This document shows, piece after piece, positions 1-28,975 of a stretch of 30,049 bases of DNA (positions are counted from its first letter, which is position 1; each line of letters opens with the position of its first letter). A model generated the notes under the pieces. It was not told the DNA's origin. It made no database searches and saw nothing but the letters and a program-made list of their open reading frames with translations. Position numbers and translations under genes: made by a program. Origin of the DNA: a virus (Duplodnaviria; Heunggongvirae; Uroviricota; Caudoviricetes); IMG/VR virus record IMGVR_UViG_2667528045_000005; one strand, written 5' to 3'.

Positions 1-1170
1 TCACTCCTCATTTTCTTCTGAGCTGTACTCCACATCGGAGAGTTTAACCTCAAGCTCTAAGCCCGTCGTGAAACCGTTATTATTGAGGTTGTGGGTCACC
101 TTGCTGATTAACCATGCCTGCTCGTCTATGACGCGCTTAAAGCCTGACACGCGTACAGGCGTCTCAGGAAATAAATCCGCTCGCCCTAGCGCCAGTGTGA
201 TTGAAAACTCCGCAACGCCTCGCTGCAGTTTATCCCACTTAGCCTGAGCGGCGCGCATCGCCTGTGCCTTTGAGGCATAGACTGTCGTCAGCGCCAGCAC
301 GTTATCGGCTTCACCGGCCATGTACTCACCCTCACGTGCTTCCTGTTCTTTTTTGACCTTTGTCTTTTTGCTGACCGGCTTTGCTTTTGGGTGTTCCAGT
401 GCGCGCAGGTGCTTCTCTTTTGGCTTGCGTTTCAGCGTTACTTTCTGCTTTTGTGGCTTCGGGTCTTTGGTGTGCAACCATTTAGCAGTGACGCCGGTAT
501 AAGCCCCACGGTCGGCAATGGCAAACTGATGACGGTCACCATCACTGCGGGTCAGCGTCATTTGCGGGACGGGTTTGCCGCTGGCCGTCATCGCACTACC
601 GGCTTTCAGAAACAACAGTTTCCCTGCCTTCACCGATACCGTTGCCCCGTTGCGGTCAGCCAGTCGACTCAAAAATACCGCGTCGGATTCCTGCGACTGG
701 TCGATATGCGGTACCGGGATTTTTTTCAGCGATTCCGCAATGCTGGCCGTCAGTTTGTTGCGCTTTGCGATGGTACTGACCAGTTCGCCGATGGTGGTGT
801 CGTGCCATGACTCTTCACGCCTGGAATTTAGCGTGCCGCGAAAGTCCGCGCTGCGCGCCCGGATGGTCAGGGTATCAGGAGCCCCCCGGTGCTCAATCTC
901 ATCGACCGTAAAAACCCCCTTATTCAGCAGCGCCGAACCCTGCCAGCCAAGCCACAACGTCAGCACTGCCCCGCGCAGGGGTAACTCGACTTTCCCATCG
1001 GTGTCATCGAGCTCAATGTCGAGCTGGTCAGCTTCAAAGCCCCTATTGTCCGTCATGGTGAGAGAAATCAGCCGGTCGCTGAAGTTGCTGGTAATGTCCT
1101 GACTGTTCAGCGTCAGCATAAAAGCCGGTGCAAGGCTGGCACCGGCGTCAATTGCCATCCCCGTTATCAT
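1..1170 (-). CDS. D: tail protein gpD
   Basis: 389 aa; N-terminus MITGMAIDAGASLAPAFMLTLNSQDITSNF matches P2 gpD as I remember it; last gene of tail operon; stop codon at window positions 1-3. Confidence 0.88.
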   Translation of the reverse strand: MITGMAIDAGASLAPAFMLTLNSQDITSNFSDRLISLTMTDNRGFEADQLDIELDDTDGKVELPLRGAVLTLWLGWQGSALLNKGVFTVDEIEHRGAPDTLTIRARSADFRGTLNSRREESWHDTTIGELVSTIAKRNKLTASIAESLKKIPVPHIDQSQESDAVFLSRLADRNGATVSVKAGKLLFLKAGSAMTASGKPVPQMTLTRSDGDRHQFAIADRGAYTGVTAKWLHTKDPKPQKQKVTLKRKPKEKHLRALEHPKAKPVSKKTKVKKEQEAREGEYMAGEADNVLALTTVYASKAQAMRAAQAKWDKLQRGVAEFSITLALGRADLFPETPVRVSGFKRVIDEQAWLISKVTHNLNNNGFTTGLELEVKLSDVEYSSEENEE

Positions 1171-5187: not shown

Positions 5188-6393
5188 TTAGCTGTTGACC
5201 GATTCGGCCAGATTTACCAGATATTTATCGGTGATACGCTGGCGCAGGGTCAGGCTTTCCAGTGGTGGAACCGGTGTATAGTCGTAGTCGATATACAGTT
5301 TCCCTGCCTTGAGGGTTTCCTTATCGTTCGATTCCTCGTCAAACCAGCATTCACCGTCCACGATGTAGCCGTTTGATTTCAGCTCGCGGAATTTGGCGTT
5401 AATGCCGTCGACAATGTCACGGATAAGTGATGCGGTGATGGGCTTATCGACCGCCCACATGTGCGCCTCGGCCATCGTGTCGGCCAGCACCTGCGCGGTG
5501 CGGGTGTAGTTCTCAAACAGGAAAAGCGGGTCATCAGAGCAGGTGCGGTTACCCCAAAAGCGGAAGCCATCCTTACGCACCAGTGTTGTGAGCCCGGCCT
5601 CGTTGAGCAGATCAGCATCGGTGCCGGATGCCTGCAAATCCCAAAACACTGACGCACTGATGCCGGTAACACCCTGCACGCCGATGTTAGACAGGGTTTT
5701 GTGCCAGCCGACGGTCTGGTCGATATAGGCACGCAGGCCGAGTGCGCGCGCAGTTGCGTATGCCGGTGCGGTGGCGTTTGTGGTGGTATCCCATGCAAGG
5801 AAATCAGGCCAGATGACCATCAGCTCGCGCTGGCTGAAATTCTCGCGATAGGCCATCGCCTCGGAAATGGTTTTACAACCCCATGCGCTGATATAGCCAA
5901 AGGCGCGCAGGCTGATACAGACCGAAGCAAGTGCGACTGCGACCTCTTTGGTATCGAGACCCGGCACGCCGAGAATGCGCGGCTTAACGCCGGTGACTGC
6001 TTCGGCAGTCAACAGCGCCTTGATGCCGGTATATTTACCGCTCTCATCCGTGCCGCCGATGATATTGGAAATGGTCTGCGCTTCGGCGTCTTCTCCGGTA
6101 CCTTCGGCAACACGCACGACAACTGTGACAGGTTTTGACTGGTCGGCGATGGCCTGCAGGGACGCGGCCAGCGTGCCTTTTTTACCGGCTTTCGCAATGG
6201 CGCTTTGCACATTGGTAATCAGTACCGGCTCGTTGAGGGGAAAGGTTGCCGCATCCGCATCGCTGGCTGTACAGACCATGCCGACGATTGCGGTTGCAAC
6301 AGTGGAAATGACGCGGGTGCCGTCGTTAATCTCAAGCACCTGCACGCCGTGGTGAAAATCACTCATCCGGTTAACTCCGTGGTTAGTGGGCAA
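5188..6393 (-). CDS. FI: contractile tail sheath protein gpFI
   Basis: 401 aa; position and sequence typical of P2 FI sheath. Confidence 0.9.
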   Translation of the reverse strand: MPTNHGVNRMSDFHHGVQVLEINDGTRVISTVATAIVGMVCTASDADAATFPLNEPVLITNVQSAIAKAGKKGTLAASLQAIADQSKPVTVVVRVAEGTGEDAEAQTISNIIGGTDESGKYTGIKALLTAEAVTGVKPRILGVPGLDTKEVAVALASVCISLRAFGYISAWGCKTISEAMAYRENFSQRELMVIWPDFLAWDTTTNATAPAYATARALGLRAYIDQTVGWHKTLSNIGVQGVTGISASVFWDLQASGTDADLLNEAGLTTLVRKDGFRFWGNRTCSDDPLFLFENYTRTAQVLADTMAEAHMWAVDKPITASLIRDIVDGINAKFRELKSNGYIVDGECWFDEESNDKETLKAGKLYIDYDYTPVPPLESLTLRQRITDKYLVNLAESVNS

Positions 6394-20669: not shown

Positions 20670-21674
20670 ATGGGCGCGGAGATTAATATTTTGGAAACTG
20701 ATTTTAAAATAACCCTCGAAGGTTTCGCTACTGAGCAAGAAGCAAATAATATCGGTAATTTCACACTAGAAGCTATCCGAGCTTTAACAAAAAATCTCAA
20801 TCTTGATATCTCCAAATTAAAATGCGTGATTGTTTCCTATAACTTCAGTGAAGCTCTTCAAAAGGTAACATCCTCTTACCAACACAAATCCCCTAGTTCA
20901 TTTACCAATAGCAAACAGGGCGCAGCCGTCGGGCAGTTAGTAACAAAAATTGGCAATGATGGGCTATGTGAAGAATATACCCTTGTGCTATCGATTGATT
21001 TTTTTGTTGAGCTTTTCAATGATGGTAGCTTCTTAAAACTGAAAGAAGAAGGATACCTCGCAGTCATCCATCGCATTCACCATGAATTAGTGCACGTACA
21101 TGAAAAAAACTTACTAACATGCTTAGCCCAAAACTTTACAGTCAACGAGTATGGTAGCGCGCTTCTTATCTCAGCCACGCGTGCATGGTCTGAATATCTC
21201 GCTAATTACATGTCTTCGGGGTCTGCCCCTCAAGAAACTATCGATTTATTTTTAGAGAATCTTGACACTGTTGTAAATGAAGTATCTGACGAGATTGAAA
21301 AACTCATCTGGGGTTATAAGTACGGTAATATTTCTCTGAATGACATGTATCTTGAAGTAAAAAAACGTATCAGGCTAATCATCAACTCTTATGCTTATGC
21401 GATGGGTTATGTCCATTCTCTAAACATCAATATTAAAGAATACGATCCAAAGCTATCCCTTACACTATCCAACTCAAAGATAAGATATCAATTATCAGAA
21501 TTAGGCATTGCTTTTCAGAATCTTTATGGGAAGTTTAATGACCAGCACATTACAGGTTTTGGTGATTTTCGGGAGATAACAATAATCATTGATGAAATAT
21601 TCAAGCAGTTTGGGCTTGTTTTAGAGTGTCCCGATTGGTCTGGCGACGGTGAACTCTACATACATGTAAATTAG
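20670..21674 (+). CDS. hypothetical protein, AT-rich orphan gene; HRIHHELVHVHE segment (HExxH-like or HEPN-like)
   Basis: 334-aa intact ORF; markedly lower GC than flanking phage genes; inserted between portal Q and cos. Confidence 0.6.
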   Translation: MGAEINILETDFKITLEGFATEQEANNIGNFTLEAIRALTKNLNLDISKLKCVIVSYNFSEALQKVTSSYQHKSPSSFTNSKQGAAVGQLVTKIGNDGLCEEYTLVLSIDFFVELFNDGSFLKLKEEGYLAVIHRIHHELVHVHEKNLLTCLAQNFTVNEYGSALLISATRAWSEYLANYMSSGSAPQETIDLFLENLDTVVNEVSDEIEKLIWGYKYGNISLNDMYLEVKKRIRLIINSYAYAMGYVHSLNINIKEYDPKLSLTLSNSKIRYQLSELGIAFQNLYGKFNDQHITGFGDFREITIIIDEIFKQFGLVLECPDWSGDGELYIHVN

Positions 21675-21893: not shown

Positions 21894-21912
21894 ATGCTTT
21901 CCCCGCCACGCC
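21894..21912. other. cos cohesive-end sequence (186-type)
   Basis: ATGCTTTCCCCGCCACGCC is the reverse complement of GGCGTGGCGGGGAAAGCAT, the phage 186 cohesive end as I remember it (2 mismatches to P2). Confidence 0.7.
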
Positions 21913-22238: not shown

Positions 22239-22523
22239 TTATTTGCGCATTCTGATGTGATTTAACAGGTGTTTGATAACGACTGATAGCTCATCTTTAC
22301 CGGCCTGCTCGACCATTTTTGCGGTGTAGCTTTCCACCTCGCGAGAGCTCAGGTCGTTATTTAAAGCCATTAAAGTCAGATTCTTTGCCCAATCGGCAAA
22401 CGGGTCATTTTTCGATGAAAGGGGATTTTGCATGTCCAAAAACCTCGAATTATTTAACCAGCAGACGGTTGAAGTATTTGCGACGCTATGACCGGCTAAC
22501 GCCTCGCGTAGCTCGTTGTTCAA
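22239..22523 (-). CDS. hypothetical protein (start uncertain: TTG at 22523 or ATG at 22433)
   Basis: 94-aa ORF in the cos-proximal island; N-terminal codons overlap repeat copy R1. Confidence 0.4.
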   Translation of the reverse strand: MNNELREALAGHSVANTSTVCWLNNSRFLDMQNPLSSKNDPFADWAKNLTLMALNNDLSSREVESYTAKMVEQAGKDELSVVIKHLLNHIRMRK

Positions 22524-22564
22524 CCCCGCCAGACCTGAAAGCGAGTTTCAGCTCCGGCGGCGTT
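22496..22564. repeat. 69-bp structured direct repeat, copy R1
   Basis: 60/69 identical to 22901-22969, no gaps; contains imperfect palindrome CCGCCAG..CTGAAA..TTTCAG..CCGGCGG; starts right after the 69-aa ORF stop. Confidence 0.6.
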
Positions 22565-22566
22565 AT

Positions 22567-22776
22567 CTATGGTCGACGTGGTGGCGGTGAGTAATGTGTC
22601 GGCTTGCTGATGCTATCCAGCTTGCCGTAATTATCCCTGACTATTTCGGCACACCCGACCAGCTCGGCGGGTGTCAAATTCTCATTGACCATTATCTGCT
22701 GCAGACGATGAACGATGGCCATCAGTTTGATGCTTTTAGTTTTGTGCTGCGGAATTTCGCCCGGTAGTCGATGCAT
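22567..22776 (-). CDS. hypothetical protein (69 aa)
   Basis: ORF with GAGGG RBS; bracketed by the two 69-bp repeats. Confidence 0.4.
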   Translation of the reverse strand: MHRLPGEIPQHKTKSIKLMAIVHRLQQIMVNENLTPAELVGCAEIVRDNYGKLDSISKPTHYSPPPRRP

Positions 22777-22900
22777 ATTATCGCCCTCAATGAATTTTAT
22801 TTAGCGCTGCCACAGCGCCACTATAAAACCCGCTAAGGTAACGTCCCATTCATCACTGGTGTGTAACCAATAAAACATCGAGAAACTTTGAGAGGAAGAA

Positions 22901-22969
22901 CTAGCGCCTCGCGGTGCGAGTTGTTCAACCCCGCCAGCACTGAAAGCAAGTTTCAGCACCGGCGGCGTT
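22901..22969. repeat. 69-bp structured direct repeat, copy R2
   Basis: Copy of R1; starts right after the DinI-like stop codon. Confidence 0.6.
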
Positions 22970-22971
22970 TG

Positions 22972-23205
22972 TTAATGCAGCCAGCTATCGTCCTCCCATA
23001 CCTGCTGCATGATTTCCATTACTCGTTTTTTATCTTCGTCCAGTTTCAAACCGCTTAGTTCAACGCCATTAGCGGAGCCCTTGCGAATTCGGATAGCAGT
23101 CTTTGGGTAAATAGGTTGAAGATTGCGGTACAGTTCAGCCTCAAGTGCATCCAATGTTGCCTGACTAATTTTTTGCTCTTTATCCAACGTGATATTGATT
23201 CTCAT
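22972..23205 (-). CDS. dinI: DinI-family protein
   Basis: 77 aa; MRINITLDK...LDALEAELYRNLQPIYP...DEDKKRVMEIMQQVWEDDSW aligns along its length with E. coli DinI. Confidence 0.82.
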   Translation of the reverse strand: MRINITLDKEQKISQATLDALEAELYRNLQPIYPKTAIRIRKGSANGVELSGLKLDEDKKRVMEIMQQVWEDDSWLH

Positions 23206-23208
23206 AAT

Positions 23209-23391
23209 CTAATCAGCCTTATAAAAATTATCATCTTCGGTTTCGTTATTTTCGCTGTTTGCTAGGTCTGCAATGAGAGTGAGCGCGAGCTTTAAGTCTG
23301 ATGGCTTGCAGTTTGCAATCAGAGATACCTCGGCAATAAATTGCACACAAGCCCACTTTTGCTGCGTTCGGCTGAAATGTTCGCCAACCAT
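23209..23391 (-). CDS. hypothetical small protein; candidate SOS-induced antirepressor (Tum-like) by position
   Basis: 60 aa, acidic C-terminus; first gene after the LexA box; stop 4 nt before the dinI-like start. Confidence 0.4.
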   Translation of the reverse strand: MVGEHFSRTQQKWACVQFIAEVSLIANCKPSDLKLALTLIADLANSENNETEDDNFYKAD

Positions 23392-23410
23392 GAAATCCCT
23401 CCCACAGGGT

Positions 23411-23430
23411 TACTGTATATTTATACAGTA
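23411..23430. promoter_or_regulatory. LexA operator (SOS box) overlapping a minus-strand promoter
   Basis: TACTGTATATTTATACAGTA fits CTGT-N8-ACAG consensus perfectly; minus strand has TTGCCA upstream and an AT-rich -10 inside the box; GGGAGGG RBS then ATG of the 60-aa ORF. Confidence 0.8.
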
Positions 23431-23504
23431 GCACGTATTGGCAAAAGATGGGAAGAAAAAAAACGAATAGAGCGATTGCTGTATGTGCATGATATGGATA
23501 TGAA

Positions 23505-25727
23505 TTACTCATGTATTGGTTTTGATGCTTCAGCCATCGCCGCAACACGATTAAGGATTTTCCGAGCTTTAGCCTCATGCGATGGTGCTGCGGAAAATAT
23601 TTCTCCTTTGGCCGTTCCGCGTAGCCATTTACCATCAAAACAACTTTTACCACCGGCCATCAGGTGCAGGGCTTCGCCCCGGCTGATATTAATGCCGGTT
23701 GTCAGATGTATCTCATCGATAGTTTTAGCTATAGCTGCGTTTTGCTCATCCGTTCCGTGGATGAATTTTCGCCGTGCTGCTGGCTTTTGCTTCCTGAGTC
23801 GGTTGGTCAATTCTCGTCTTTCACGCCGACTCAGTGGTTTTGTTAAATCCAGTATCGGTGGATCGCTTTCGCTTCCCGTACAGTTATTGACAGAACTCCG
23901 AGGGACGGCTTTGCCGTCCTGAAGGTCAACGGCCAAATCAACAGCACGCTTCGGAACAATCTTCCACTGAGTGAGCCGGGTTAAAATCGGGCTTCCTGCA
24001 CCTATGGAGGAATCGTAGACCCCCTTAATACATACCGTTTCCTCACCGTACTGATTAAGCTCGGTGCGCGGTTCATACAGTGTGCGCACCTGTAAATCAT
24101 CGCGACGGACAAACGGCCCACCCTGAGCATTAACATAACCAGCCCAGTCACCAGCGTCGGCGGCATCATGGACGGCGGCAAACTCAACGCTCAGACCGTG
24201 CGCGGTTTCGGTATCAGCGAGGCGACGCAACTCACGGTAAACCGTCACCGGCGCACCACCAATAAACTGAAACTGACGGATGTGCCAGCGCGCAGCCCAT
24301 GCTGAAACGGCGGGGGCTGTCTCTTTCAGCAGCTCACCGCTTTCATCATCGGTTTCACCATCGAGAGCATAACCGTCGATATTTTTTGAAATGTATTTAG
24401 CAACATAGCCGGTTGCGCTGCCTTTCTCCGGGTCAATGGACTCGGCGTGGAAACGTGCTTTTTTGGATTTATCGCTTTTCAGTTCGTGGCGGTCTTCTTT
24501 CCATGCGTATTTACGGACGATGGAGCGAACATATTCAACATCTTCCGGCAGCATGAACATCAGCATGTGCCAGTGTGGAGTGCCGTCGTGATGGGGCTCG
24601 GCGACACGAATACCGAAAATACGGACATCTTCCCGATGTAGTTTGGCACGGATACGCGCCCAGATACCGGTTAGATAGTTTTGCGTGTCAGCCGGGCTGG
24701 CACCGCTCCATTTGCTGTTACGGTAACCGGCTTTAGTCGTGGCGTGATATTTTGACGGCGCGGTTAGAGTGTAAAACTCACCGACATAACCGAGCTCATT
24801 ACAGATGTTTTCAAACCCACGAATGCGGGTCATGAGCTCACAGCGGCGAATCGCAGGGTTAGCAACTGAGCCATCATATTTTTCAATTAGGCTGATACGG
24901 TTGCCGTCTTCGTCTTCGAGATCCAGACCTTTGAGAAATTCACGAGTGCGGCGCTTTTGTTCACGCCAGTCAGTCACGCAGTTTTTACTCGCGTAAGTGT
25001 TTTTTTTCTTACTGACGTTGCCGACTGCAATTTGCAGGTGTTCGCGCCACGTAGCTGCAACACGGCGCAAACGACCGCGCCACCACCCATCGTTAAACAT
25101 TTTGGCGATAGCCGGTGCGATTTCATCCGCACCGACATATTTTTTTTCAACCCGCTCCCAATGTGGTGGGATAACGTTGAATTGGAGGGAAATAAAGCCA
25201 GCACGAATATACCAGGTGTACAGCGTTTTAAGCTCGCCGAATCCGTGGTCATTAATGTTGGCAAGTTCACCACGAATGAAATTAGCAATATCAGCGGCCA
25301 ACAGGTCAACATCAGCGCGCGACATGTCCGGGAGACGGTTATATTGGGCGACCATATTAACCATGCGTGACGACAGATATTGCATTTGCTGAGTATCAAA
25401 ATGACTTCCAAAAACAGCGGTTGATACCTTGCTGTTGATACCAGCGCATTCGTATTTTTTTGCGACCAGTTCAAGACGCGGCAATGCCTTTTTGCAGAAG
25501 CTGATTAAAAATGCATTGGCTCGTTGACTACCCTGATTTTGCTCCAGCACCGCAGCAGTGCGATAAACATCTAACCGCACGCAGTCGGGCTGGAGAGAAA
25601 GCACCTTTTTTGCATGCAGCAAAGCCGCGAACATACGGTCGCGGCGATGCTGTTGCTCATAAGTAAGGTATGGGCTGGAGATTGCCGACCGTGGGACGTT
25701 CCACGGATAAGCGAATTGAACAGCCAA
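23505..25727 (-). CDS. A: replication initiation endonuclease gpA (rolling-circle)
   Basis: 740 aa; P2 gpA-like. Confidence 0.9.
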   Translation of the reverse strand: MAVQFAYPWNVPRSAISSPYLTYEQQHRRDRMFAALLHAKKVLSLQPDCVRLDVYRTAAVLEQNQGSQRANAFLISFCKKALPRLELVAKKYECAGINSKVSTAVFGSHFDTQQMQYLSSRMVNMVAQYNRLPDMSRADVDLLAADIANFIRGELANINDHGFGELKTLYTWYIRAGFISLQFNVIPPHWERVEKKYVGADEIAPAIAKMFNDGWWRGRLRRVAATWREHLQIAVGNVSKKKNTYASKNCVTDWREQKRRTREFLKGLDLEDEDGNRISLIEKYDGSVANPAIRRCELMTRIRGFENICNELGYVGEFYTLTAPSKYHATTKAGYRNSKWSGASPADTQNYLTGIWARIRAKLHREDVRIFGIRVAEPHHDGTPHWHMLMFMLPEDVEYVRSIVRKYAWKEDRHELKSDKSKKARFHAESIDPEKGSATGYVAKYISKNIDGYALDGETDDESGELLKETAPAVSAWAARWHIRQFQFIGGAPVTVYRELRRLADTETAHGLSVEFAAVHDAADAGDWAGYVNAQGGPFVRRDDLQVRTLYEPRTELNQYGEETVCIKGVYDSSIGAGSPILTRLTQWKIVPKRAVDLAVDLQDGKAVPRSSVNNCTGSESDPPILDLTKPLSRRERRELTNRLRKQKPAARRKFIHGTDEQNAAIAKTIDEIHLTTGINISRGEALHLMAGGKSCFDGKWLRGTAKGEIFSAAPSHEAKARKILNRVAAMAEASKPIHE

Positions 25728-27296: not shown

Positions 27297-27668
27297 TCAG
27301 TTAAGAGCGGTGCGCTGGTCGATGTAGCGACAATCAATCGCTTGTTGAGTCAGCTTATCGCGCCATGCTTTTACATTTACGAGGGTTCGGCTTCGTTTAG
27401 CAGCTTCCTCTTTGTTGGAAAAGTCTTTGGTCGGAGCTTTGAGAAGGACTCCCTCATCGAGCCATTGCCAGACCAGACGCTCGCTAACACCGCGAGTAGC
27501 GGCGAAGTCTTTCACAGTCATCGTGTCTGACATAGCGGAGCGAATCATTGTCTGTAGAGCTGGCAGCATGGCGGTAACGATGGCATCAAACTGTGTTGGG
27601 TCTAGCAGCACAGTTTGATTTTGTGAGTTTTGCGAGTCGTGCGTCGAGATTGATTTTGCATCTGACAT
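27297..27668 (-). CDS. Cox/Apl-like HTH protein (putative excisionase / lytic-switch regulator); start uncertain
   Basis: First gene of the early operon, divergent from cI; HTH-like TVKDFAATRGVSERLVWQWL; 123 aa is longer than Cox or Apl, so an internal Met may be the true start. Confidence 0.45.
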   Translation of the reverse strand: MSDAKSISTHDSQNSQNQTVLLDPTQFDAIVTAMLPALQTMIRSAMSDTMTVKDFAATRGVSERLVWQWLDEGVLLKAPTKDFSNKEEAAKRSRTLVNVKAWRDKLTQQAIDCRYIDQRTALN

Positions 27669-27781
27669 ATCGCATTATCTCCTGTTGTTTGAAATGTAGT
27701 GCAGTGGTGTGCATCTTGGTCGGTGAGCACCAATATAGATCGCTAAATTTTGGTTGTAAACAAAATTCTTGTTGGTGTCAT
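27669..27781. promoter_or_regulatory. immunity switch region (early and repressor promoters and operators)
   Basis: 113-bp gap between divergent cox-like and cI starts; direct repeats GGTGTGCA (27706-27713) and GGTGAGCA (27722-27729), plus TTGTTTGAAA / TTGTAAACAA inverted elements. Confidence 0.4.
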
Positions 27782-28627
27782 ATGTCTAAAAATGATGTTA
27801 ATGCGTCTGCCGCATTGGAACGTGTCCTTTCTGCATACGGCTTTAAGCAGCAAAAGGAACTAGCCGAAAGGCTTGGCATACATGCAAACAACGTGAGTAG
27901 CTGGCTTGCTAGAAACGTAATCCCTAGCAACGTTTTCGTTGAGTGTGCTCTTGATACTGGAGCTGACCTGCGATGGCTAATTAATGGTGAGCTTGCAAAT
28001 GCAAGATTTGAAGTGGTGAAAACTAAGCTTAAAGGTAAGCAACTCTATGATGAAATCATGGCAAATGGAGGGAGGGCGGTTCTGCGTCGGATTCTCGATG
28101 CGTATGGTTTTACTCTGCAAAAAGAGCTTGGAGATTTATTAGGTATATCTTCCGGCACTATAAGCACTTGGGTTAGACGCGATTTTTTCCCCGGTGACGT
28201 GGTTGTCACTTGCGCCCTTGATACTGGCGTATCGTTAGAATGGTTATCAACCGGAAAAGGCCAGATGCGTAACAGTAATGATGGTGAACCGGCAAATGCT
28301 TTAACGATTAGAAAGTGCCGCCTCGAGGCTGGCGAACTCAAAGATATCGGACGCTGGACTCCTGATATATCTATGGTTCCATCAAATACTGATGATTTAG
28401 TGTTTATTGATGGTGTGAGCACATCTTGGCTTGTTGATAGTTCTAACTCGAAGATAGGAAATGGTCGCTGGCTTATTGGTATTGATGGCGCACTCGATGT
28501 TTTTGACGTAATCAGGTTGCCAGGCGGAAAGGTCAGGTTATCAAATAAGTCTGCTGAGTTTGAATGTAATATTTCAGATATCACACCATCAGGTGCGGTT
28601 ATTTTTACTTTGGAAAAGCATGTTTAA
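27782..28627 (+). CDS. cI: CI-like immunity repressor with tandemly duplicated N-terminal HTH domain
   Basis: Start trimmed to ATG 27782 (MSKNDVN...), 281 aa; two ~65-aa repeats (AYGFKQQKELAERLGI...CALDTGADLRWL and AYGFTLQKELGDLLGI...CALDTGVSLEWL). Confidence 0.72.
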   Translation: MSKNDVNASAALERVLSAYGFKQQKELAERLGIHANNVSSWLARNVIPSNVFVECALDTGADLRWLINGELANARFEVVKTKLKGKQLYDEIMANGGRAVLRRILDAYGFTLQKELGDLLGISSGTISTWVRRDFFPGDVVVTCALDTGVSLEWLSTGKGQMRNSNDGEPANALTIRKCRLEAGELKDIGRWTPDISMVPSNTDDLVFIDGVSTSWLVDSSNSKIGNGRWLIGIDGALDVFDVIRLPGGKVRLSNKSAEFECNISDITPSGAVIFTLEKHV

Positions 28628-28636
28628 GGAGCAGTA

Positions 28637-28975
28637 ATGAAAAAGTTTATATTTGCGATAGTCTGCATTGCACTTTCTTCCTCAGCCATAGCCGCTGAGA
28701 AGTTTAAAGAGATAGACGGCGCTGCATATGGTGACAAGTGGCCTCTAACCTTTGAAAAGGCAAAGGTATCATGTGTTAACCGTGCTTATGCTTTTGTGTA
28801 TGACATCAAAACTGATGATAGATATCCTCTGAATGGCATGGCGGTAGATGCTGTTAAATCAGGAAAGCTGGAGGGGTCTAACTTAGATGACGTATGGAAG
28901 GATGACCCTGAGTATGACGGCGTTAAAATTTCAATTTCACCGGTGATTGATGCCGCTACAGCCCTTTGTAATTAA
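28637..28975 (+). CDS. secreted small protein of unknown function (signal peptide), moron between cI and int
   Basis: 112 aa; MKKFIFAIVCIALSSSAIA signal peptide; two Cys in mature part; lower GC than the phage core. Confidence 0.6.
   Translation: MKKFIFAIVCIALSSSAIAAEKFKEIDGAAYGDKWPLTFEKAKVSCVNRAYAFVYDIKTDDRYPLNGMAVDAVKSGKLEGSNLDDVWKDDPEYDGVKISISPVIDAATALCN

Follow-up and report, generated by a model that had tools for sequence, protein, structure and literature searches.

A split tum operon behind a predicted LexA box in a probable PSP3/186-type prophage of Escherichia coli

Introduction

What role does a 60-aa open reading frame (ORF) play when it lies directly behind an SOS box and directly ahead of a DinI-family gene near the right end of a phage genome? 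We address this question for one locus of the window, i.e. the whole 30,049-nucleotide stretch of DNA analyzed here (IMG/VR record IMGVR_UViG_2667528045_000005). The original prediction, made from the letters of the sequence, drew a parallel to the LexA-controlled tum operon of coliphage 186 and proposed the 60-aa product as a candidate antirepressor linking prophage induction to the SOS response. The 186 mechanism has been established since the 1990s. Induction of that phage runs via LexA-controlled p95-tum, with Tum sequestering the repressor CI (PMC7708051); Tum binds its cognate repressor and blocks operator binding, and the second half of the protein is DinI-like (Lemire et al., PMC3121763). 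In Fels-2 and PSP3, tum is split by a stop codon (PMC3121763).

We find that the feature is the already described tumA-tumB operon through which PSP3-type phages are linked to the SOS response, with 186 tum split into two genes. The antirepressor interpretation is supported, but the element has already been annotated and discussed and is not new. Below we set out the evidence for this identification, weigh other readings of the locus, and describe what a comparison of relatives suggests about the two halves of Tum and their repressor partner.

Results

Genomic setting and the PSP3 counterpart

We consider it very probable that the window represents a P2-family E. coli prophage of PSP3/186 (Eganvirus-like) type and the feature its SOS operon (Table 1). 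Late genes, terminase gene P, portal gene Q, cos, small right-end genes, and replication gene A occur in that order, and A is followed by B, a fil-like gene, cII, and an apl-like gene, with cI and int on the opposite strand. The ORFs of A, cI, cII, int, terminase, and portal are intact. A 561-bp query spanning the tum region has a 100% identical counterpart in the E. coli MB06232 chromosome and detects the region in 81 of 5,426 complete E. coli genomes, in which RefSeq labels the 60-aa ORF a “hypothetical protein”. The cos sequence has 2 mismatches to the P2 cos 19-mer, against a chance expectation of 0 matches, and tumA lies between gene A and cos, an order shared with 186 and PSP3. Placement of the operon “next to cos” holds only approximately: cos is situated ~1.06 kb past tumB, and two small conserved ORFs intervene. 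Searching the entire window for Rfam families and tRNA genes gave no hits.

Table 1. Positions of the features discussed in the text, in window coordinates unless given as residues.
Feature	Position	Strand	Remarks
334-aa ORF between portal gene Q and cos	20670-21674	plus	PHROG 11743, function unknown
cos cohesive-end sequence GGCGTGGCGGGGAAAGCAT	21894-21912	minus	defines the right genome end
small ORF	22239-22523	minus	phrog_2454
small ORF	22567-22776	minus	phrog_11386, PSP3 gp37 equivalent
stable hairpin	22927-22969	minus	15-bp core stem without U tract, 3 nt past the tumB stop
tumB	22972-23205	minus	77-aa DinI-family protein
tumA	23209-23391	minus	60-aa candidate antirepressor, ATG start, homologous to the N-terminal half of 186 Tum
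Shine-Dalgarno GGGAGGG of tumA	23397-23403	minus	5 nt 5' of the ATG, read from sequence
LexA (SOS) box TACTGTATATTTATACAGTA; minus-strand reading TACTGTATAAATATACAGTA	23411-23430		
-10 hexamer TACTGT	23425-23430	minus	coincides with bases 1-6 of the box in minus-strand reading
-35 hexamer TTCCCA, p95-like SOS promoter	23449-23454	minus	by alignment to 186 p95
replication gene A	23505-25727		
apl-position gene	27297-27668	minus	123 aa, phrog_3554
cI-apl intergenic region	27669-27781		
inverted repeat AATTTTGGTT/AAACAAAATT	27746-27767		next to the cI start
cI	27782-28627	plus	281-aa 186-type immunity repressor, presumed TumA target; PF07022 x2 + PF16452
CI HTH1	residues ~12-75		
CI HTH2	residues ~99-163 (nt 28076-28270)		
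CI CTD	residues ~176-281		
DUF2511 gene between cI and int	28637-28975	plus	112 aa, lysogenic strand

The Salmonella phage PSP3 (GenBank AY135486, genus Eganvirus) is 94% identical to the window at the DNA level across 1.1 kb around the feature, and its TumA and TumB proteins are 98% and 99% identical, respectively, to those encoded here. Both genomes share one order: A, LexA box, tumA (60 aa), a 3-nt gap, tumB (77 aa), a gp37-like ORF, and cos. The AY135486 annotation describes tumA as “similar to 5' end 186 tum; UV induction of prophage” and tumB as “similar to dinI and 3' end of 186 tum”. PSP3 and the window differ in host (an E. coli chromosome here), in the cargo genes near cos, and in CI, which is of the same dual helix-turn-helix (HTH) type in both and 73% identical; the operon itself would not differ functionally.

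Several genes around the operon deserve mention in their own right. The two small conserved ORFs fill the tumB-cos interval (22239-22776, minus strand), where 186 carries the unrelated gene orf97, which encodes 243 aa and belongs to phrog_3403. At the position between Q and cos, P2-like phages carry variable cargo or defence genes; the window has there a 334-aa ORF that matches neither Pfam nor PADLOC, and phage 613R3 carries its counterpart along with two further genes. Between cI and int, the DUF2511 protein has a hydrophobic N-terminus that, judged by eye, resembles a signal peptide, and its gene resembles a moron that is expressed during lysogeny. The product of the gene at the apl position is longer than the 87-aa 186 Apl and gives a weak match to Cox-like excisionases (E = 8e-5); the gene was not detected by tblastn in relatives with a single-HTH CI.

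A predicted LexA operator and a p95-like promoter

The motif CTGT-N8-ACAG occurs a single time in the 30-kb window, at the predicted site, and 19 of the 20 positions of the box agree with TACTG(TA)5CAGTA; in shuffled sequence, 20-mers with at most 3 mismatches to this consensus are expected 0.01 times. Located 19 nt 5' of the tumA ATG, the box has the properties of a putative E. coli-type LexA operator, i.e. a palindrome near consensus lying over promoter elements. The minus-strand promoter proposed to overlap it was upheld by comparison with 186 and not by de novo detection. A generic sigma-70 promoter scan of positions 22500-23900 called no promoter, and we therefore assign the tumA promoter by homology to 186 p95 only. 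The -35 hexamer aligns column by column with the annotated p95 -35 (TTCACA), and the -10 hexamer and LexA box align with the annotated -10 and LexA site of 186, where this promoter and box occupy the equivalent place downstream of gene A. Agreement of the -35 hexamer with the consensus is 4/6 and that of both hexamers together is 7/12, which is weak.

To follow the locus among relatives, we assembled a PSP3-type set of 83 sequences, consisting of 80 IMG/VR loci (TumA identity of 77-100%), PSP3, phage 613R3, and the window. In 81 of these, the window among them, a CTGT-N8-ACAG box stands 38-42 nt 5' of the tumA start codon; one of the remaining two has no upstream sequence.

tumA encodes a homolog of the N-terminal half of 186 Tum

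The 60-aa ORF directly 3' of the box was confirmed, and alignment of its product with 186 Tum, which had been put forward as a check, revealed homology at the profile level. Profiles were needed for this because pairwise BLASTP of TumA against 186 Tum returned no alignment. TumA matches phrog_1993 from end to end (1e-31), as do residues 1-61 of 186 Tum (2e-23), and hhalign of a 41-sequence TumA alignment against a 12-sequence alignment of 186-type Tum N-termini gave E = 2.9e-5 with a probability of 74% and 34% identity over 32 columns. The homologous portion of 186 Tum comprises residues ~14-45; the Tum-N halves of the two types are ~23-27% identical, and a multiple alignment of TumA and Tum-N sequences contains the invariant residues I19, A20, C28, A36, L37, I40, A41, and A44. 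An AlphaFold2 (AF2) model of TumA (mean pLDDT 70) consists of helices at residues 8-25 and 30-50 joined by an invariant N-C-K-P turn, with a disordered acidic tail after them. No relative of TumA was found in the PDB, no match was obtained in Pfam or PADLOC, the PHROGs match is to an unnamed family of unknown function, and a literature search for “TumA” returned no relevant result.

Within the protein database the TumA family forms 208 clusters at 90% identity, nearly all of 60-61 aa and drawn from many Enterobacteriaceae; UniRef names some of them TumA. Among 46 distinct tumA alleles from IMG/VR contigs, variable sites are distributed 26/18/54 over codon positions 1/2/3, and in the conserved core the distribution is 10/3/32. 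Judged by this codon pattern, the 60-aa ORF is a real coding gene whose codons are under purifying selection. It is this conservation that effectively refutes the reading of the box, the ORF, or both as chance or as decayed, functionless remains of a defective prophage. That reading could appeal to the weak promoter hexamers and to the RefSeq label; it is countered by the low chance expectation for the box and its conserved position in relatives, by codon-level selection and a length that is nearly invariant over the 208 clusters, and by the intact ORFs of the neighboring prophage genes, and we regard it as scarcely credible.

The antirepressor role proposed for the 60-aa protein is supported by the annotation of its PSP3 ortholog as TumA and by the phrog_1993 match shared with 186 Tum. 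It is further backed by the part of PMC3121763 that deals with PSP3, which reports second-hand, from a personal communication, that the upstream PSP3 gene is the antirepressor and the downstream gene a DinI homolog.

tumB encodes the DinI-like half

As predicted, a DinI-family gene follows the 60-aa ORF. The junction reads TAG-ATT-ATG, i.e. the tumA stop, ATT, and the tumB start; translational coupling of tumA and tumB is likely because tumB starts only 3 nt past the tumA stop. TumB matches the Pfam DinI family PF06183 with E = 7.4e-24 and 84.3 bits (cut-off 24.2), and the match spans profile positions 2-63 of 63, i.e. the full length. It also aligns with E. coli DinI (PDB 1GHH, 2.6e-9), including the acidic C-terminal helix, and is 47% identical to residues 71-145 of 186 Tum.

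These alignments support the proposed parallel with the LexA-controlled 186 operon, as do the homology of TumA and the alignment of p95 and its LexA box; one detail of it needs correction. The original prediction described the 186 operon as Tum followed by a DinI-like ORF; the DinI-like element of 186 is instead the C-terminal half of Tum itself, and orf97 is not DinI-like. In its annotated record, 186 Tum is a single polypeptide of 146 aa, and tum is described with the words “expression repressed by LexA; inhibits CI DNA binding”. Internal start codons are present in frame within the gene; starting at the last one, the GTG of Tum95.5, yields the DinI-like part alone, and such truncated, DinI-only forms are annotated “modulates SOS induction”. 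The tumB ATG of the window aligns exactly with this internal GTG. A linker of ~12 residues (~36 nt) present in 186 Tum is missing from the window, where the TAG stop splits the two halves.

Past tumB, the hairpin has z = -3.2 against shuffles and occupies the position of the partial terminator t95a of 186, and a role may be assigned to it from that position only. We rejected it as a canonical intrinsic terminator: it has no U tract, and a generic terminator scan of positions 22500-23900 called none.

The DinI half is variably retained among relatives

A full DinI gene adjoins the 3' end of tumA in 48 of the 83 PSP3-type sequences, though a few of these copies also look disrupted; in two more, the DinI copy is displaced or truncated. 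In the remaining 33, which keep the box and tumA, no DinI homolog is found within 3 kb downstream of tumA, and in several of the tumB-less loci cos follows 278 bp past tumA. Where a DinI gene is present after PSP3-type tumA, it is one of two alleles that are 47% identical to each other, and either allele can accompany an identical TumA. The alternative allele encodes 76 aa, is nearer to the 186 Tum C-terminus, and occurs with the same or a 98% identical TumA in IMG/VR loci and phage 613R3 (L003 at 6076-6306, L005, L007, L009, L020, and L047). Since identical or 98% identical TumA proteins are found with differing DinI alleles, the two halves recombine independently.

This pattern bears on whether TumA and TumB might act only jointly, as a two-piece Tum whose DinI-like part is needed for induction. 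Fusion of both halves into one polypeptide in 79 of the 82 loci with a 186-type Tum would fit such joint action, as would the close spacing and probable co-translation of tumA and tumB and the annotation of the DinI-only 186 forms. It is opposed by the 33 loci without a DinI homolog and the few disrupted copies, by the pairing of identical TumA with two divergent DinI alleles, by the second-hand report that in PSP3 the upstream gene supplies the antirepressor, and by the Gifsy prophages, in which dinI deletions are without significant effect (PMC3121763). We consider obligate joint action improbable. As a hypothesis drawn from these loci, the conserved unit would instead be the LexA box plus tumA, with tumB dispensable.

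The CI repressor and its pairing with Tum

The 186-like repressor type suspected in the original prediction is supported by two PF07022 domains and one PF16452 domain and by the alignment of CI residues 100-274 with full-length 186 CI (PDB 2FJR, 4e-21). Because this segment corresponds to the complete 186 CI, which has one HTH where the CI of the window has two, HTH1 is an extra N-terminal domain. The Pfam families that CI matches at E ≤ 0.01 include no S24 peptidase, and the cognate 186-type CI is thus devoid of a RecA-stimulated autocleavage domain among the Pfam matches listed. A CI without self-cleavage cannot respond to RecA, and therefore induction needs an antirepressor.

In the PSP3 type, mean pairwise identity is 0.62 for HTH1, 0.91 for HTH2, and 0.69 for the CTD (58 relatives for HTH1 and HTH2); the linkers of CI diversify as HTH1 and the CTD do. 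Single-HTH relatives (192-205 aa) have the HTH2 type only. We compared 163 non-redundant Tum-CI pairs of three Tum types, namely PSP3 (split), DuoHS/Fels-2 (split), and 186 (fused), all from loci selected by Tum similarity and hence phylogenetically non-independent. For 159 of the 163, the cluster of the CTD-proximal HTH is the one that goes with the Tum type. Mean pairwise identity of this HTH is 0.77-0.89 among CI proteins of one Tum type, against 0.41-0.46 across types; the CTD gives 0.43-0.63 and 0.27-0.31, respectively. The CTD falls into 20 clusters, of which 14 occur within the nearly invariant DuoHS Tum type. The four exceptional pairs (L257, L253, L276, and L281) combine a fused 186-type Tum with a CI HTH outside the usual 186 cluster, which in L257 is PSP3-like, and could represent cross-reactivity or non-inducible hybrids.

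The near one-to-one match of Tum types with CI HTH types also speaks against induction by TumA through a target other than CI, e.g. Apl, CII, LexA, or RecA, as do the annotated inhibition of CI DNA binding by the 186 homolog and the reported binding of Tum to its cognate repressor (PMC3121763). In favor of such a target, identity of TumA within the PSP3 type does not track that of the whole CI, with pairs in which TumA is 100% identical and CI 67%, or TumA 78% and CI 100%. On balance we hold a non-CI target to be highly improbable, and CI remains the presumed target.

Within CI, the comparison points, if loosely, to the CTD-proximal HTH as the site of TumA contact; this would agree with the annotation “inhibits CI DNA binding”. 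The suggestion is a loose one because Mantel tests within the PSP3 type do not favor HTH2, the loci are related, and operators may explain the conservation of HTH2. An attempt to single out the contacted domain by fine-scale covariation failed: within the PSP3 type, Mantel r between TumA and CI was 0.23 for HTH1, 0.44 for HTH2, and 0.57 for the CTD, so that the CTD exceeded HTH2, a result that looks like shared phylogeny. In the cI-apl intergenic region of relatives, the side adjoining cI differs according to HTH1 type and has type-specific repeats, in the window an inverted repeat (Table 1), and the apl side is conserved; HTH1 and HTH2 may have separate operators. Given this division, constraint by operators explains the conservation of HTH2 equally well, and we have downgraded that conservation as proof of TumA docking. 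A specificity code in which each Tum-N type corresponds to one type of CTD-proximal HTH (here HTH2), with a dispensable and repeatedly lost DinI half, is a tentative proposal that we put at somewhat below even chances. If true, it would tell where on its repressor a classic antirepressor docks and explain how immunity diversifies without loss of SOS inducibility.

Discussion

By analogy with its relatives, the operon would work as follows. In the lysogen, host LexA bound to the box over the p95-like -10 would keep tumA-tumB silent. After DNA damage, activated RecA would provoke self-cleavage of LexA and the p95-like promoter would fire, allowing the 60-aa, two-helix TumA to accumulate and bind the 186-type CI. 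Titration of CI off its operators would derepress the early lytic promoter and induce the prophage. TumB, as a DinI homolog, probably modulates RecA filaments and hence the strength or duration of the SOS signal, and would be accessory and not required. The present analysis establishes the sequence elements, the homologies, and their conservation among relatives. LexA control, the binding of CI by Tum, and the requirement for the small ORF come from published work on relatives, and we infer that the window copy would behave like their operons.

Genetic evidence for the need of the small ORF comes from the DuoHS prophage of E. coli HS, in which an in-frame tum deletion abolishes mitomycin induction, as does lexA(Ind-) (PMC12055606, PMC11195241). 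Using the published primers, we recovered this locus type from 120 IMG/VR contigs. DuoHS Tum is a 62-aa ORF belonging to phrog_698 with a weak match to phrog_1993. The DuoHS/Fels-2 loci share with the window the split architecture, an upstream LexA box, and a DinI homolog immediately downstream, but their LexA box lies 61 nt before the ATG (39 nt in the window), their Tum-N subtype is ~18% identical to TumA and related to it at the profile level only, and their Tum is paired with a CI HTH type other than that of the window. Because the DuoHS locus is split and its tum deletion is non-inducible, the split architecture has been genetically tested in a sister subtype. Other systems can be likened to the operon by their logic: GfoA/GftA of Gifsy-1/2/3 and AntC of N15 are small, LexA-repressed antirepressors acting against a non-cleavable repressor. 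The Gifsy antirepressor also forms an operon with a dinI homolog, but in reversed order with dinI first, and the Gifsy prophages are lambdoid and N15 has its own context, as opposed to the P2-family window.

For the biology of this E. coli prophage, the finding identifies its probable route of sensing DNA damage. The practical gain is a correct tumA annotation: RefSeq still gives the gene a hypothetical label where the region occurs among complete E. coli genomes (81 of 5,426). What novelty is left consists of hypotheses, namely that the DinI half is dispensable, that Tum type corresponds to CI HTH type, and that this 186-type CI has two HTH domains, and these by-products of the comparison offer modest leads for researchers of the 186 switch.
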